Source: Chlamydiota bacterium (GTDB taxonomy: Bacteria > Auribacterota > JACPWU01). Taken from it: a DNA stretch of 5,119 bases. How positions within the stretch are numbered: position 1 is the stretch's first letter; each line of letters opens with the position of its first letter. A program made the translations under genes and the position numbers. Below, one piece after another: positions 1 through 5,119 of this stretch. Location: NCBI GenBank assembly GCA_016196885.1, contig JACPWU010000036.1, forward strand, positions 1-5,119, given 5' to 3'. The notes beneath the pieces were generated by a model. The model made no database searches. It worked only from the letters and a program-made list of their open reading frames with translations, and was not told the origin of the DNA.

Positions 1-2407
1 ATGGGTCTTGCACCTTGTATTTTAGAGCCAAGTAGGGATACTTGTTTAAATCAATCCACTGCGCTCCCCCTAAACGTCCTTCATCCCCTATCAACTCTGG
101 GCCAGGATTTAAATATTGAATCTTTACAAACTCATCTTCGGATCCATTAAAAAAGCCTTTCACCCGACAAATACCTTTCCTAAAACTACTTTGAAAAGGA
201 CATCCTACTCCTTGCATTTTCATCTTAGAAATGTTCTCTTCCCTTTGAAAAAAATGATTCTCTTTTAAGGCACTTTCTAATAAAAATCGAGAAAAGGATT
301 CCCCTGTTCTTCTAAAAACTTTCTTAAGTGAAAATCCACCCATCAGCTCATAAGGACAGTCCCTTGTAAACACCTGATACATTCTATACTTTTCAGCCTT
401 CTTCTCAACCTCATCATGCTTACCAACATCATCAAAAAAATAAGATACTTCTGTCTTTTTGAAGATCGAGTCTATCCCCTCGGGACCTAAAAGATTGTTG
501 ACCGTGGACCCATGATCACTGTCACGATTGATCCACAAAACAGAATGTCTAAGCGGCTTCTTCAACCCTTTCATCAAAGTCTCAATCCCCAGATCTCTTT
601 GCTGGTCCTCAAAGGCAAAGACAGGATGGCGTTTAAAATAAGGCATGAGCACGGGCAATCCTAGGTTAGAGACAGGACCTCTGACAATTGCAACGCTCGA
701 AGCAGGGTAAATCAGGGGCAGGACTCGAGTGTTCTCGAAAATCTCAACAAGTTCACTGTTGCAAATCCTGCTTAATCCATCCACGGCCTCAAACCTTCTG
801 GCAATCTCCTTCATCGAAGGCGTCTGAGAACCTTGATACATACCCAGACGAATGATGAGATATTTAATGCTTGCAAGACCCAGCAATTCTGTCAGATAAC
901 CACTGTTATGAGAAAAAATCTTGGCCCGCAAGATATCAATAAAGTCACTGGCGATGCCATTGCCTCGATCCGAGAGACCAATCACAGCAGGAACCGGTGC
1001 ATAAATCGAAAATAAGTCACAGATTTCTCGGCTCATCCCAAAAAATCTTTTATCATTCAGCAGGCCGACCCGTCCCCCCAATGGCAGATACAAAGCCTTC
1101 AAACCACTTTTTTCCCCTTTTAAACTTTGCTCTACTTCGTAATATTCCTTTGGAAATTGTAATGTCCTCAGCCGTATGTCAAAGCCTCCACTAGACTCTC
1201 CATAAAGCTCTCCTATCCAAAATGGGCAAGAAAGCAAGACCACCAGAAAGACTAAACCATAACCTACAAAACGCTTGAATCTATACCCTCTAAAATTCCA
1301 CAGAGAAGCCTTTTTTGTATAACAACACAACGCATCTATCACCATGGCACTGAGAACAGCGTAGGCCAAATTTGAAAGCACCATGAATCGGCCCACATCA
1401 CGCACCACATTGGAAAAGGGAATGAAAGCAAAGAAACCTCGTCCTAAAAAGAAAATCCAAGGTAGAAGCGATAAACAAACAAAGTAGATCACCCTTCTAC
1501 TTCTCCTCAAGAGGAGGGCCGAATAGGCTAACAGGGGAGGTACCATAGATAAAAACATCCAGGGATGAGACCAGGTAGATTCATATTGATAATTACGAAG
1601 TCCTCCCCATAACCTCAACAGCCCGAGGAAGCTGAGTTTTTCCTGAAAGCGGTCAATATCAAAGCTGGAAACCTTCTGGGTTACCAATGGATTCTGGGGC
1701 ATTAACACCGCGAATATCCAATGTGCATTCACGAGAAAAAAAATGAGAAACACCAGTCCCAAAAACTTTAAGGAGGTTTTTATCTCACTTTTTGAGGTCA
1801 CAATAAACCAAGCTAATAAAAACAACGCCAGGGGATACCAAACCAAAGACTGTGATTGAAAAACCGCTATCGAAAAGAGCAAGCTCGTTAAGATCGCATA
1901 ACTGCCTTTGCGCGTTTTAACAGCTTTTGTAAAAGCCATCAAAGTCCATGGAAACAAAGCGAGTGACAGAATCACAAACAACCATCCCATGATAATATAG
2001 TTAAAGAAGAGAGGGGTGGTCACAAAATAAAAGCCCCCTACCAGGGAGGGGAAAAAACCCAATTTTAAGAAACGGCAGTATGAATAAAGGGAGAATCCTG
2101 CCAAGGTAAACATAAAAATCAGCAGAAATTTGACGAATCCTGCCCCATTGATTCCTAAAAATGACAGTCCTCCCACGAACAGACGAAAGAAACAGTCATT
2201 CAAGTTGGAAGCCGCAAGACCAAACAAGGACTCGGTGTTATGACGCCACATGAACACACCTTGAGCAGCATAAGCACGCATCTGATCAGGCGCCTCTGGC
2301 AAACCCCAATCTCCCCCACTGATCAAACCAGGAGAGGCAAGAATTCCCCGCAAGAAAACCAGGGAAACCACGCAATAGAAAATCAATGCAAAAACCCGCT
2401 GGCTCAT
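1..2407 (-). CDS. Large polytopic membrane protein, putative GT-C fold glycosyltransferase (AftD/DUF3367-like or YfhO-like). It is 3'-partial: the C-terminus lies beyond the left window edge.
   Basis: Manual reverse-complement translation from the ATG at 2407..2405 gives 802 sense codons with no stop down to position 2 (MSQRVFALIFYCVVSLVFLRGILASPGLISGGDWGLPEAPDQ ... LNKYPYLALKYKVQDP). The ORF track omits it only because no stop lies in the window. AGGA sits 7 nt upstream of this ATG. An alternative in-frame ATG is at 2425..2423, just after an in-frame TGA at 2431..2429. Nt ~1216..2407 encode about 12 hydrophobic segments with an acidic first-loop motif (GGDWGLPE). Nt 1..1215 encode a hydrophilic, presumably extracytoplasmic domain (e.g. 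LTELLGLASIKYLIIRLG). The family call comes from remembered architecture and motifs and was not searched. Confidence 0.88.
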   Translation of the reverse strand, partial: MSQRVFALIFYCVVSLVFLRGILASPGLISGGDWGLPEAPDQMRAYAAQGVFMWRHNTESLFGLAASNLNDCFFRLFVGGLSFLGINGAGFVKFLLIFMFTLAGFSLYSYCRFLKLGFFPSLVGGFYFVTTPLFFNYIIMGWLFVILSLALFPWTLMAFTKAVKTRKGSYAILTSLLFSIAVFQSQSLVWYPLALFLLAWFIVTSKSEIKTSLKFLGLVFLIFFLVNAHWIFAVLMPQNPLVTQKVSSFDIDRFQEKLSFLGLLRLWGGLRNYQYESTWSHPWMFLSMVPPLLAYSALLLRRSRRVIYFVCLSLLPWIFFLGRGFFAFIPFSNVVRDVGRFMVLSNLAYAVLSAMVIDALCCYTKKASLWNFRGYRFKRFVGYGLVFLVVLLSCPFWIGELYGESSGGFDIRLRTLQFPKEYYEVEQSLKGEKSGLKALYLPLGGRVGLLNDKRFFGMSREICDLFSIYAPVPAVIGLSDRGNGIASDFIDILRAKIFSHNSGYLTELLGLASIKYLIIRLGMYQGSQTPSMKEIARRFEAVDGLSRICNSELVEIFENTRVLPLIYPASSVAIVRGPVSNLGLPVLMPYFKRHPVFAFEDQQRDLGIETLMKGLKKPLRHSVLWINRDSDHGSTVNNLLGPEGIDSIFKKTEVSYFFDDVGKHDEVEKKAEKYRMYQVFTRDCPYELMGGFSLKKVFRRTGESFSRFLLESALKENHFFQREENISKMKMQGVGCPFQSSFRKGICRVKGFFNGSEDEFVKIQYLNPGPELIGDEGRLGGAQWIDLNKYPYLALKYKVQDP

Positions 2408-2496
2408 ACTCTTATCCTGGCCCATGCATCAAAAGCCTTTCAAATAATTTCATGCCTTGAGTGTGGGCATTCCTAAAAATGATCTGCCTTCTGGTC

Positions 2497-3489
2497 TCAG
2501 TCTCCCTTCCATAAACTCTCATCTTTTTTGAGCCATATCTCAACACAGTCACCCCACGGGGTCCAGGATAAAAGGGTTGCAATGGGAAAAAGAAAAAAAT
2601 TCAGAAAAAGATTCCCTCCCAATCGGCTCCTCATCCCCAGAAGCTGATGCTTGCGGAACTGATTCAACCAATAGTCTAGACTGATCAAACTAAAGGCTGG
2701 AAAACTTTGGAAGGTTCTGCGAACCTCTTGAAAACCAGACTTTTCAGCACATTGCCTCAATGTCTTCAAGGAATATAAGAAAAAATGTCTCGGGGTTTCC
2801 AAGGCATGCCAACATCTCCCAAAAATTTTAAATCCCAAGGACCCAATATTTGGAACATTGATAATAAGAGTCCCGTCTCTTTTCAGTACCCTTCTCAAAT
2901 CCATTAAAGATAACAAAGGATCTGGTAAATGTTCGAAAACATGATTCAAAGTAATAACATCAAAATACTCATCCGGGAAATGGGATTCTTTAAGAGAAAG
3001 AACATTTAATCCCCGAGCCCTTGCCCTCCTCAAAGCTATTTCACTAAAATCGACCCCCCAAACCTCCATTCCTAATCCCTTCATCTTCTCAAGGAAGTCA
3101 CCTGAACCACATCCGAAATCCAACAAACGTCCTTCTGGTTTGACTAAAGTCCCTCGGATCAGCGGTCGAAAGGGTAGAAACAAAATCTTTTCCCAGAAAT
3201 GGTCTTCTAAAGAATCATAAATCCGTTCAAGCTTCTTAAGGAATTTCGCCCCGAGTAAAGCATGGTGGGTTCTAGGCTCATAGGCCTCATAAATTTCAGG
3301 ATAATAAGGAATGATCTCCTCTTGAGGTTGAGGATTAATAAAAATCAGGCCACAAGTGCACTTCCATAAAGAAAATTCTCCGGTCGTTCCGTACATTCGA
3401 TCGTGATTATTAAAGAGAAACTGAAAATCTGTGGCGCCACAAAGACAGCATTGAGAAATCTCTCTCACGCATTCACCTCTAGCCCGCAT
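2497..3489 (-). CDS. Class I SAM-dependent methyltransferase with an N-terminal 4-Cys zinc-ribbon-like motif and a hydrophobic C-terminal tail
   Basis: This is the 330-codon ORF in the track. Motif I is LLDFGCGSGDF, the acidic post-I motif is VWGVDFSE, and motifs II/III are FDVITLNHVFEHLPDP and LKRDGTLIINVPN. The N-terminus carries CCLCG...KCTCG. The C-terminus has a hydrophobic stretch, NLFLNFFLFPIATLLSW. Start uncertainty: the ATG at 3489 lies inside the terminal repeat of the inserted element. An in-frame GTG at 3468 is preceded by AGAGGTGA (3480..3473) with a 4-nt gap, so the native start may be 3468. Confidence 0.93.
   Translation of the reverse strand: MRARGECVREISQCCLCGATDFQFLFNNHDRMYGTTGEFSLWKCTCGLIFINPQPQEEIIPYYPEIYEAYEPRTHHALLGAKFLKKLERIYDSLEDHFWEKILFLPFRPLIRGTLVKPEGRLLDFGCGSGDFLEKMKGLGMEVWGVDFSEIALRRARARGLNVLSLKESHFPDEYFDVITLNHVFEHLPDPLLSLMDLRRVLKRDGTLIINVPNIGSLGFKIFGRCWHALETPRHFFLYSLKTLRQCAEKSGFQEVRRTFQSFPAFSLISLDYWLNQFRKHQLLGMRSRLGGNLFLNFFLFPIATLLSWTPWGDCVEIWLKKDESLWKGD
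3473..3480 (-). promoter_or_regulatory. Shine-Dalgarno sequence AGAGGTGA serving an in-frame GTG at 3468 (probable native translation start of the methyltransferase)
   Basis: On the minus strand, AGAGGTGA matches 7 of 8 positions of the canonical GGAGGTGA. The spacing from the GAGG core to the GTG is 7 nt. By contrast, the ATG at 3489 is preceded by TTTTCAGATAAA with no SD-like purine run. Confidence 0.55.
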
Positions 3490-3491
3490 TT
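3482..3491 (+). repeat. Left terminal inverted repeat GCCCGCATTT (12 bp if the flanking TA at 3480..3481 is included)
   Basis: It is the exact reverse complement of 3792..3801. It overlaps the annotated ATG (3489..3487) of the methyltransferase ORF. Confidence 0.9.
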
Positions 3492-3538
3492 TATCTGAAA
3501 ATAGTTTTTAGTTATTCTTATACAATAAGTTATGATGA

Positions 3539-3794
3539 CTTGTAGTCGCCCGATTCATCGGGCAGCCCCATAAATGGGGCGACTACAAGGGTGATTTTCA
3601 TCCCCCTTTGTGACTGAAAGTTATGGCCGTTTCTCATCAGATTTCGTCGCGAGAGCGTCAAGTCTGCCTTGGATGCGAGGAAGACGCTCCGTGCCATGCG
3701 AGGCATACTTTGCAGTATGTCGAGCGTGGCCGACCGAGTCTGCACGGAGAGACGAGGCGGAATCGGAGAAGAGCAGCAGAAATGTGATGAGAAA
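3539..3794 (-). ncRNA. Candidate structured RNA of unknown class, embedded between two co-oriented genes. It has a three-way junction, a GAAA-capped hairpin and a GCAA-capped extended hairpin closed by a 16-bp helix.
   Basis: Three-way junction: a 9-bp outer helix (3539..3547 / 3581..3589) encloses two 6-bp hairpins (3548..3563 and 3565..3580). Hairpin 3589..3606 has a GAAA loop on the minus strand. The extended hairpin 3693..3730 reads, on the plus strand, GCCATGC-GAGG-CATACT-TTGC-AGTATG-TCGA-GCGTGGC, and its loop is GCAA on the minus strand. Helix 3687..3692 / 3744..3749 and the closing helix 3630..3645 / 3779..3794 complete the fold. Strand choice rests on the GNRA loops occurring only on the minus strand. 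I recognise no known RNA family. Confidence 0.3.
3625..3645 (+). repeat. Internal degenerate copy of the terminal repeat (GGCCG--TTTCTCATCAgATTTC), in the same orientation as the left end and inverted relative to the right end
   Basis: Reading the right end inward gives GCCCGCATTTCTCATCACATTTC (reverse complement of 3779..3801). The internal copy matches it at 19 of 23 positions with one 2-nt gap. That match includes an exact 10-mer (3630..3639 vs 3785..3794) and a further exact 5-mer (3641..3645 vs 3779..3783). Confidence 0.85.
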
Positions 3795-3801
3795 TGCGGG
3801 C
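3779..3801 (-). repeat. Right terminal inverted repeat (outer 10 nt pair with 3482..3491; inner 16 nt pair with 3630..3645)
   Basis: This was read directly from the sequence. Base 3801 also supplies the G of the TAG stop codon (3803..3801) of the upstream gene. Confidence 0.9.
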
Positions 3802-5119
3802 TAACATCTATTCTTTCTTTTCATAAGGTAAAATCCCAATAAACAAAACAACAAAACAGTTCCAGAAATAATCCATCCTACCTCCAAAGCCCTTTGTGAA
3901 GTAAATTCAAGAATAATCTCAAAAGATTCATTTTGTCTCTCAATTTCTAACTGCGTTCCAAGGTCTTTAGGATCCACCCACCACGTGTTCAAATATCCAT
4001 TGGCTGCAAAATGACGCTTCAACTCGATACGCCGTCCACGATCTCTTAAAAGACTCAACAGCGCAGAAGAAGGTTCATCAAACTCCAAAAATTGGCCCCT
4101 GCCATTCTGTGTAAGGTCATTGACCTTTCGAACATAGGCTCTCCAATTGGGATGAAAAGATTCGCTAAAGACCAACCAAAACGGCTGATCAGATTTCTGG
4201 ACCCTCACAACATAGCGCGTCGGATTGATTTTTCTAAAATCAATCTCTGGCAAGCGCTGTTCGCGCTCTAACCCAGGTCTAAACAAGAGCCAATCACAAG
4301 TGAGCCTGGGATTCGTTAAGAAACGCAGTTTCTGAAACCTCTTTTGAAATTTTAAAGGGTCCAGGCGAAATTGGAAACAGTTTTCGTCCACCCTTTTAAT
4401 CTTACCTTGTGGAATGTCAACCGGGGTGCCATTCAGAGAAAAGAGTTTGACCGGATCCAATCCGAAGTCAAACGCCTCTAACCTCCTTATTTTTTGTTCA
4501 AAAAGATAACTTTCTACACGATACCGCCACCGATTCTTCTTCTGATGGGGTGCTACAAGCTCCATCCATTGCAATTCCCAATTTTTCCAGTTCTTTCTCG
4601 CATCCAAAATCTCCCGAAAATCAATATTCACAAAACTGATCCCTTTATTGAGAGATACCACTGAAAATTCGCGCTCTAATTGGCTTGATTCTTTTTTCTC
4701 GCCGGCCAGCCCAAAGCCAAAGATCGCTCGAACATGACGTCCTGAGTAGTCTTTCAAAAAAAGGTTCCAGTGATTCATATCATTTAAATTTAAAAATTGT
4801 CTCTTGTGAACCTGAAATGAGAATTTCTTGTCGCGAGGAATCTCAAAGAGAGACCCAACCCCATAGACTTTCCCTTCGTCTTCATAAGCATAAGATTTAG
4901 TAGGAAGATCCTGCTGGAGATCTACATCCAAATGTTGAAACATCCCGATATCATAAAGGACAAAATCATATTCTCCCTTCTTCCCCTTGGAACAATCCAC
5001 TCCCCAAATCTTATGCGGTAAAATCTCTAACGAGGTGAGATAATAATGCTTCTCGCCAGGTAACACCTCTCGTGCCTTTCTCAAAAGGTCTACGATGAAT
5101 GTATCCTTCTTGGCCGAAG
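3801..5119 (-). CDS. C-terminal part of a large envelope protein with a C-terminal TM anchor, probably the extracytoplasmic domain of a second AftD/YfhO-like GT-C protein. It is 5'-partial.
   Basis: The track ORF 3801..5084 begins at a TTG. The same frame is open upstream to the window edge (...SAKKDTFIVDL before LRKAREV), so the true start lies beyond 5119. The stop TAG is at 3803..3801. A single hydrophobic helix, VGWIISGTVLLFCLLGFYLM (~3822..3881), is followed by a basic tail, KRKNRC. The motif FWLVFSESFHPNWRAYV ... ANGYLNTWWV resembles the conserved C-terminal xxPGWxA / NGW region of YfhO/AftD-type proteins, as I recall it; this was not searched. Confidence 0.88.
   Translation of the reverse strand, partial: SAKKDTFIVDLLRKAREVLPGEKHYYLTSLEILPHKIWGVDCSKGKKGEYDFVLYDIGMFQHLDVDLQQDLPTKSYAYEDEGKVYGVGSLFEIPRDKKFSFQVHKRQFLNLNDMNHWNLFLKDYSGRHVRAIFGFGLAGEKKESSQLEREFSVVSLNKGISFVNIDFREILDARKNWKNWELQWMELVAPHQKKNRWRYRVESYLFEQKIRRLEAFDFGLDPVKLFSLNGTPVDIPQGKIKRVDENCFQFRLDPLKFQKRFQKLRFLTNPRLTCDWLLFRPGLEREQRLPEIDFRKINPTRYVVRVQKSDQPFWLVFSESFHPNWRAYVRKVNDLTQNGRGQFLEFDEPSSALLSLLRDRGRRIELKRHFAANGYLNTWWVDPKDLGTQLEIERQNESFEIILEFTSQRALEVGWIISGTVLLFCLLGFYLMKRKNRC

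Follow-up and report, generated by a model that had tools for sequence, protein, structure and literature searches.

The window analysed here is a stretch of 5,119 nt from a Chlamydiota metagenome-assembled genome (MAG; GenBank assembly GCA_016196885.1, contig JACPWU010000036.1, positions 1 to 5,119), in which all three genes lie on the minus strand. The gap between the methyltransferase gene and the gene upstream of it, at 3480-3803, holds, with a probability of roughly 0.8, the relic of a miniature non-autonomous element with the termini of IS1380-family insertion sequences (ISs), and its core belongs to an apparently undescribed, widespread repeat family of ~176 nt. The original prediction, which was made from the letters of the window alone, had read the gap as a 320-bp MITE (miniature inverted-repeat transposable element) with 10-bp terminal inverted repeats (TIRs) and a TA duplication, mobilised by IS630/Tc1-mariner transposases. 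It had the kind of element right, which is non-autonomous and has TIRs and multi-locus relatives, while the IS630 assignment and the TA duplication were wrong, since the ends are of the IS1380 type and the flanks are 4-bp repeats.

The membership of the window copy was assessed with a covariance model, R1, which was built from 52 metagenome units with the window left out. R1 matches positions 3627-3800 of the plus strand over model positions 1-176 with 80.3 bits (E 3.5e-24), against 12.3 bits on the minus strand. For canonical copies the scores are 120-166 bits, for copies with insertions 77-88 bits. Matches to R1 were found in Acidobacteriota, Bryobacterales, Candidatus Eisenbacteria and Gammaproteobacteria, which together with the Chlamydiae MAG make at least four phyla. 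The window has no match in Rfam 15 at E <= 1, only rRNA and tRNA reach gathering scores on 18 loci holding family copies, a tRNA/tmRNA search of the window found none, and the window unit has no blastn match in plasmids.

Relatives with the same ends were collected in two scans. The genome scan, which covered one genome per species in a collection that does not include the source MAG, used the pattern GCCCGCATTT-N(285-315)-AAATGCGGGC and returned 97 stretches, 70 of which have in common a longer repeat, GCCCGCATTTCTCAC(CAGG), with flanks that are mostly CTA...TAG. Their hosts include Gamma- and Alphaproteobacteria, Acidobacteriota, Thermoanaerobaculia and Verrucomicrobiota, and a recurrent unit of ~176-190 nt inside several of the matches aligns with window positions 3625-3801. 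The metagenome scan was anchored on CCCGCATTTCTCA, 5-9 nt and TCGTMGCGAG, left the flanks free and gave at least 120 stretches; the figures taken from it below (124 matches, 61 and 66 units) are counts among the matches listed. A right end follows 160-180 nt downstream in 61 of the 124 matches, the canonical unit being ~176 nt long, and contigs often end inside the unit, as they would in a repeat. In the metagenome Ga0307505, four near-identical 177-nt copies (L127, L151, L175 and L221) occupy unrelated loci with their own 4-bp flanks each; three of them share 97.7-99.4% identity, and a 1-nt indel shifts the fourth. These copies point to recent transposition of the family unit. Many copies with the same termini are found at unrelated loci, where each has a target duplication of its own, which bears out the predicted non-autonomous element with TIRs.

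The termini of the family are those of IS1380-family ISs. A scan of viral contigs for TAGCCCGCATTTCTCAC yielded an element of 1708 bp (L102 319-2026), which has the ends ACCCGCATTTCTCACA and TGTGAGAAATGCGGGC and encodes a 483-aa transposase with matches to PF13701 (E 2e-152) and to NF033539, the NCBIfam IS1380 equivalog (E 2.7e-122). A tblastn search of plasmids with this transposase gave 517 records, and four elements were examined. The element on pKF715A of Pseudomonas putida (L108) runs from ctag and CCCGCATTTCTCACAGG to CTGTGAGAAATGCGGG and ctag, the Bradyrhizobium element (L111) has CCCGCATTTTTCACAG and ATGTGAGAAATGCGGG inside the same ctag flanks, the left and right ends of the Rhizobium element (L109) are more diverged, and IS1380A of Acetobacter (L110) has CGCGGAAATCTCACAG and GTGTGAGAAATCCGCG between tcga flanks. 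Ends of the form CCCGCATTT(C/T)TCAC are present in L102, L108 and L111, with diverged versions in L109 and L110, and all of these elements encode IS1380-family transposases. The repeat CCCGCATTTCTCAC itself is found in pKF715A, Bradyrhizobium and L102, IS1380A carries CGCGGAAATCTCAC, and the plasmid elements of P. putida, Bradyrhizobium and Rhizobium have CCCGCATTTCTCAC-type ends flanked CTAG/CTAG. Of the arms in the window, the right one agrees with the family termini at 15 of 16 nt, the inner left one agrees with a 3-nt gap, and the outer tip agrees at 9 of 9 nt. Unlike the ISs, which are ~1.65-1.7 kb long, the window element has no transposase gene, its unit is of the ~176-nt kind and its interior is non-homologous to theirs. 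As predicted, no transposase is encoded in the element, the inner open reading frames (ORFs) of which reach at most 71 aa and cross covarying helices. Only short forms, and no long partner elements, were seen among the 97 genome loci; as well, the metagenome copies without a nearby right end are all truncated and lie beside ordinary genes, with no transposase.

The flanks of the metagenome units, which were not forced by the search pattern, reveal the target duplication. Among 66 complete units, 20 have the 4-nt flanks CTAG/CTAG, five TTAA/TTAA, four CTAA/CTAA and two TTAG/TTAG, so that perfect 4-bp direct repeats, non-palindromic ones included, bound 31 of the 66, and no inverted combination (CTAA/TTAG) occurs among them. 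This fits a family that duplicates a 4-bp YTAR target, as is catalogued for the IS1380 family. ISfinder lists that family, to which IS1380A, ISEcp1, ISPme1 and IS1247 belong, with ends CC and direct repeats of 4-5 bp, and the IS1380-family elements are also like the window family in ends that start with CC and in the 4-bp duplication of a palindromic tetranucleotide.

This target also accounts for where the window element lies. A flanking gene has its stop codon within the duplicated target in 16 of the 66 units, which concerns 18 gene ends (11 of upstream same-strand genes and seven of convergent downstream genes, with both in L126 and L144). Insertions into stop codons are tolerated because YTAR contains TAG or TAA and the duplication regenerates the stop, and for this reason the window element can lie exactly between a stop codon and a ribosome-binding site. 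In L126 (994-1169) and L144 (4955-5155), both flanking genes converge and each stop is inside one copy of the duplicated CTAG, which indicates that the CTAG before insertion was the overlapping stops of two convergent genes.

Taken as a mechanism, an IS1380-type DDE transposase supplied in trans would recognise the ~15-bp terminal repeats CCCGCATTTCTCAC and insert the element into a YTAR tetranucleotide, with CTAG preferred and 4 bp duplicated. Insertions into stop codons would regenerate TAG or TAA and survive.

In the window, the arms announced by the original prediction are present, GCCCGCATTT at 3482-3491 and its reverse complement AAATGCGGGC at 3792-3801, and so is the TA immediately outside each of them (3480-3481 and 3802-3803). 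The element also lies, as was said, between a stop codon (TAG 3803..3801, minus strand) and the next ribosome-binding site (AGAGGTGA, 3480..3473), which is followed by an in-frame GTG at 3468..3466; read on the minus strand, the left flank CTAG runs directly into AGAGGTGA. The element is assigned to 3483-3800 (318 nt overall, including the unit of 174 nt), because the family evidence puts the tips at CCCGC...GCGGG. It is not one clean 320-bp element; instead, it consists of a 174-nt unit with a damaged left end, a detached 9-nt tip and a 135-nt spacer (Table 1). A second, longer inverted repeat within the gap pairs 16 nt with 94% identity, and it is with this inner arm, not with the outer left tip, that the right arm truly pairs. 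The tip of the inner left arm lacks 3 nt compared with CCCGCATTTCTCA and reads CC---GTTTCTCA. The right end (GATGAGAAATGCGGGC) fits the longer family repeat consensus, whereas the outer left end does so over only 9-10 nt; the sequence after the outer tip diverges from CCCGCATTTCTCAC (TATCTG...), and the covariance model stops short of this tip. The predicted contrast in G+C holds for 3601-3800 (0.555), but the flanking 200-nt windows are at 0.345-0.455, which makes the contrast smaller than hand counts had suggested. The high G+C is confined to 3627-3800, and 3492-3536 and 3592-3626 are AT-rich.

The spacer carries a double hairpin at 3539-3589 (51 nt), which is formed by two inverted GTAGTCGCCC-loop-GGGC units whose 25-nt arms show 88% complementarity. 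One hairpin here combines two GTAG-headed palindromes, GTAGTCGCCCGATTCATCGGGC and, in inverted orientation, GTAGTCGCCCCATTTATGGGGC, as in a REPIN. It is at 3539-3589 only that the window resembles the RAYT-mobilised repetitive extragenic palindromic (REP) sequences and REPINs, which likewise have two inverted short palindromes, GTAG heads and a long intergenic hairpin. L001, an independent 2.2-kb contig that Logan assembled from the same organism, stops at 3536, adjoining the hairpin, which suggests that the hairpin is repeated in the source genome.

Three histories fit this composite: an insertion into the left repeat, the capture of adjacent DNA by way of a surrogate end, and two separate remnants. 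The last of these is possible, if on balance doubtful. According to it, an older copy was reduced to CTAG and CCCGCATTT, a second, near-complete copy was inserted at the stop codon, and the 135 nt between them are native intergenic DNA, which means that the two genes were not tightly joined at first. Like the host, the spacer is AT-rich, and a REPIN-like hairpin is typical of intergenic DNA. Moreover, copies keeping only the 5' part are frequent in the family, and tandem copies (L062 3712-4020 and 4023-4330, which share a single CTAG) as well as composite or nested copies (L048, L097, L033 and L085) occur. The match of the window flanks at three of four positions does not discriminate, since YTAR flanks are expected either way. 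However, a tip of exactly 9 nt requires a precise deletion, and the spacer is bounded by an imperfect direct repeat, CCGCATTT (3484-3491) and CCG--TTT (3627-3632), which suggests an insertion into the left repeat. A one-piece composite can also be produced by IS1380-family transposases, because ISPme1 and ISEcp1 of this family misrecognise surrogate ends and carry adjacent DNA along (PMC9330008). By analogy with these two, surrogate-end use is one possible route to the window composite. If 3483-3800 entered as one piece, the original junction would have been the tight TGT-TAG-AGGTGA-ATGC-GTG, and an element-free junction would be expected to read TGTTAGAGGTGAATGCGTG / ATGTTAGAGGTGAATGCGTG, or its CTAG variant. 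With a spacer of native intergenic DNA, the gap would at first have measured ~140 nt.

The ~176-nt unit has a conserved structure, which is specific to one strand. Aligned with 61 other units, the window unit is collinear end to end, and the alignment contains the near-invariant motifs TTCGT[A/C]GCGAG, GG-hairpin-TCGAG and GCAG[C/T]AGAA. With the window unit included, RNAalifold predicts a rod of 52 pairs, 35 of which have compensatory changes; the apical hairpin, consensus helix 6, has them in five of its seven pairs across the family. With the window left out, 92.9% of the cells in the alignment are paired, compared with 75.8% for shuffled partners and 34-46% for slid partners, and changes on both sides are seen in 34 of 53 pairs (441 cells); none of 500 shuffles reached the observed pairing and double-change values. 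Folded as the consensus structure, the forward strand reaches -64.2 kcal/mol and the reverse strand -21.5; in 61 of 61 units the forward strand is the more stable, and the strand difference of a unit is -14.5 kcal/mol, compared with -5.4 in composition-matched shuffles. G-U/U-G pairs number 286 and A-C/C-A pairs 32. A constraint on double-stranded DNA would treat G-T and A-C alike, which argues that one strand is selected as a single-stranded molecule. This molecule would most simply be RNA, with a single-stranded DNA transposition intermediate as the alternative. A role as RNA needs read-through transcription, because a transcript with both terminal arms must start outside the element; in keeping with this, a crude ORF heuristic gives the upstream gene the same orientation as the structured strand in 36 of 52 cases. 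The ~310-nt proteobacterial elements score ~22 bits against R1 on both strands and have only the terminal repeats in common with the unit. No overall strand asymmetry was seen in these ~310-nt subfamilies, where 30 of 58 copies fold more stably on the forward strand, and the strand-specific structure is thus a property of the ~176-nt subfamily only.

It is conceivable, though rather unlikely, that the ~176-nt unit is a functional strand-specific structured nucleic acid in IS1380-type transposition or its regulation. It could be an RNA that scaffolds, guides or titrates the transposase, or a folded single-stranded DNA intermediate that joins the ends. Such a function, if real, would explain why structure rather than sequence is kept across phyla, why G-U but not A-C is accepted, and why the non-palindromic TTCGTMGCGAG, GTCGAG and GCAGYAGAA are near-invariant.

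The structure could also be that of a domesticated stand-alone non-coding RNA gene, which would be read from the plus strand, antisense to the operon, with the inverted repeat as its closing helix. Consistent with this, the gap folds with -142.8 kcal/mol on the plus strand (z = -8.0 against shuffles) and -116.6 on the minus strand (z = -4.8), and the family structure is strand-specific and covarying. As well, the structured strand of the window is antisense to the flanking genes, and read-through of the operon cannot make the structured RNA. We nevertheless regard a stand-alone gene as very improbable. A scan of both strands of 3300-4000 detected nothing promoter-like or terminator-like, and the closing helix begins at the element tip, so that any transcript with this helix must start outside the element. 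The window copy scores 80 bits against the 120-166 of canonical copies, its tip is damaged and several pairs of its long internal helix are broken, and the family copies have target duplications at unrelated loci, like mobile DNA. The window element, as the relic of a mobile element, is probably old and immobile. Its present effect, if any, would be a less stable yet strong hairpin in the polycistronic mRNA, as the structured strand is antisense to the operon. A hammerhead-like string, CUGAUGAG...GAAAC, was also noticed on the minus strand and was dismissed, having neither helix II nor an Rfam hit.

A MITE of the IS630/Tc1-mariner type that duplicates TA is still harder to maintain. IS630 prefers CTAG and duplicates TA, and TA indeed stands directly outside GCCCGC...GCGGGC in the window and in most copies of the first scan. 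However, that scan could not separate a 2-bp TA from a 4-bp duplication, because its pattern forced the tip bases G and C. Where the flanks were left free, the base beside CCCGC co-varies with the far flank as part of a 4-bp repeat (CTAA/CTAA, TTAG/TTAG, TTAA/TTAA), and the homologous tips of IS1380A, which are flanked TCGA/TCGA, also point to a 4-bp duplication. Moreover, five of the five transposase-bearing elements found with these termini encode a DDE transposase of the IS1380 family, and no IS630/DDE_3 protein was seen among them. A chance inverted repeat in an ordinary spacer can practically be discounted: when the window is shuffled by mononucleotides, 0.68 exact inverted pairs of 12 nt arise within 400 nt and 1.4 irrespective of distance, in line with the predicted figure of about one, and the 12-nt repeat alone is not significant, but the covariance model matches over its full length, and the termini gain their significance from being identical to those that bound hundreds of elements elsewhere and to those of IS1380-family ISs.

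Several observations weigh against a structured relic of an IS1380-type miniature element. The window flanks, CTAG and CTAA, agree at only three of four positions (a pair that also flanks three of the 66 relatives), and the length of the outer left repeat is just 9 nt. The interior of the unit has no similarity to the non-coding ends of the five IS1380-family elements beyond the terminal repeat of ~17 nt, which means that the unit is not a simple deletion derivative of the elements examined, and no transposase-bearing element with the subterminal motifs of the unit was found. In addition, the strand asymmetry of the folding energy is partly one of composition (forward G>C skew +0.12, about one third of the difference), and the orientation bias toward neighbouring genes is modest and was scored with the crude ORF heuristic.

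Other forms with these or similar ends were recorded. The gammaproteobacterial MAG CALODJ01 (HOU_bin.0136) carries ~20 copies of a ~309-nt subfamily with IS1380-type termini. The CALODJ01 copies (L007, L008, L020, L021, L025 and others) each hold a nested inverted pair, GTAGGGTGCGC...GCGCACC, which is REP-like, so that amplification of the element also multiplied a REPIN-like unit. Minimal palindromes of ~35 nt, which consist of the two terminal repeats only, are present at L020 979-1014, L036 400-431 and L062 2282-2319, and may have arisen from family members by deletion or been left behind on excision. In the cultured Acanthopleuribacter pedis KCTC 12899 (L022 3372-3683), the interior is a minisatellite of ~8 tandem copies of GAAAGGTCGGCCCCGC. 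Two mutually homologous, low-G+C matches to the first pattern, in Flavobacteriales and Sphingobacteriales MAGs (L024 5937-6247 and L056 5221-5538), have neither the family repeat nor YTAR flanks; their start, GCCCGCATTTATCT, resembles the outer left end of the window, GCCCGCATTTTATCT. As for the ISs themselves, the 5' ends of L108 (606-705), L109, L111 and L102 have in common a long-range hairpin, TGCATCGGGGCC...GGCCCCGATGCA, which encloses the transposase start codon and looks like a conserved translational control structure.

The features of the window are collected in Table 1. The methyltransferase probably starts at GTG 3468..3466, which is favoured because the ribosome-binding site AGAGGTGA precedes it. 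An alternative in-frame ATG (3489..3487, minus strand), at which the automatic gene call of the Logan contig starts the protein (330 aa), sits inside the terminal repeat of the element; it is in frame because CTAG is read through as GCT-AGA. The upstream hypothetical protein matches HYZ67_06270 with 100% identity along its entire length, and no Pfam family or domain was found in it (3801-5117) in a Pfam search. A paralogue, HYZ67_07450 (P0002), is 38% identical and lies on a 27.6-kb contig of the same MAG; relatives outside the MAG are only distant, and the nearest of them (L002), 40% identical, has different neighbours, with a glycosyltransferase downstream and no element there.

Table 1. Genes of the window and parts of the element between them (positions in the window).
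Feature	Position	Strand	Basis or remark
Large membrane protein gene	1..2425	-	
Class I S-adenosylmethionine (SAM)-dependent methyltransferase gene	2497..3468 (or ..3489)	-	Pfam Methyltransf_23, E 4.4e-25
Left flank CTAG, target-site copy beside outer left tip	3479..3482		Family target YTAR, 4-bp duplication
Outer left tip CCCGCATTT	3483..3491	+	First 9 nt of family TIR CCCGCATTTCTCAC
Spacer, 135 nt, AT-rich apart from hairpin	3492..3626		Composition; no match to family model
REPIN-like double hairpin	3539..3589		Repeat search and fold
Member of ~176-nt structured repeat family, IS1380-type termini	3627..3800 (174 nt)	+	Covariance model R1
Inner left arm CC---GTTTCTCATCAGATTTC	3627..3645	+	cmsearch alignment; inverted repeat 3630-3645 / 3779-3794
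Conserved 5' subterminal motif TTTCGTCGCGAG (consensus TTCGT[A/C]GCGAG)	3642..3653	+	(Near-)invariant alignment columns
Apical hairpin and conserved tail GG-CATACT-TTGC-AGTATG-TCGAG	3702..3724	+	Consensus helix 6
Conserved 3' subterminal motif GCAGCAGAAA (consensus GCAG[C/T]AGAA)	3773..3782	+	Family alignments
Right TIR TGATGAGAAATGCGGG (consensus TGGTGAGAAATGCGGG)	3785..3800	+	Family comparison and covariance model
Right flank CTAA, target-site copy	3801..3804		Complement contains TAG stop 3803..3801 of upstream gene
Hypothetical protein gene, 3' part, C-terminal membrane helix	3801..5119, runs off window	-	HYZ67_06270 (Chlamydiae bacterium MAG)

Integron attC sites are folded single-stranded DNA, which is recombined by a tyrosine recombinase with no target duplication. 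Like the window family, they are sites in mobile DNA with a variable sequence, in which the fold of one strand is conserved; unlike them, the window family is associated with a DDE transposase, and a single-stranded DNA form is hypothetical here. Short non-autonomous intergenic repeats with TIRs and a short target duplication are also known as ERIC/IRU elements in enterobacteria and as Correia elements (CREE/NEMIS) in Neisseria. These are confined to one bacterial family or genus, whereas the window family spans Acidobacteriota, Candidatus Eisenbacteria, Gammaproteobacteria and the Chlamydiae MAG and has IS1380 ends and a one-strand structure with many compensatory changes. In one respect it departs from the classical MITE, as its interior does not derive by deletion from any of the IS1380 elements examined. 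ERIC/IRU and Correia elements are often co-transcribed with their neighbours and form stable hairpins, which can be processed by RNases (PMC10969869). The window family would be like them in giving structured transcripts. The same 2024 review of MITEs has no mention of IS1380 (PMC10969869). No description of a MITE with IS1380-family ends was found, and a full-text literature search for the terminal sequence yielded no paper.

For the window itself the consequences are limited: a decayed mobile-element insertion accounts for the odd composition of the gap, and the gene model of the methyltransferase, which the automatic call begins at an ATG within the element, is corrected. MITEs have previously been tied to several IS families, and IS1380 ends would be a new addition to these. 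By landing in TAG or TAA stops and regenerating them, the family makes a target choice that minimises harm. It is abundant in soil, sediment and freshwater metagenomes and occurs in several phyla, and its covariation signal is among the clearer ones in bacterial repeats and is strand-specific. The family is therefore a tractable case for asking whether the fold of a miniature transposon is kept for mobility, for an RNA-level effect on host transcripts, or for both.

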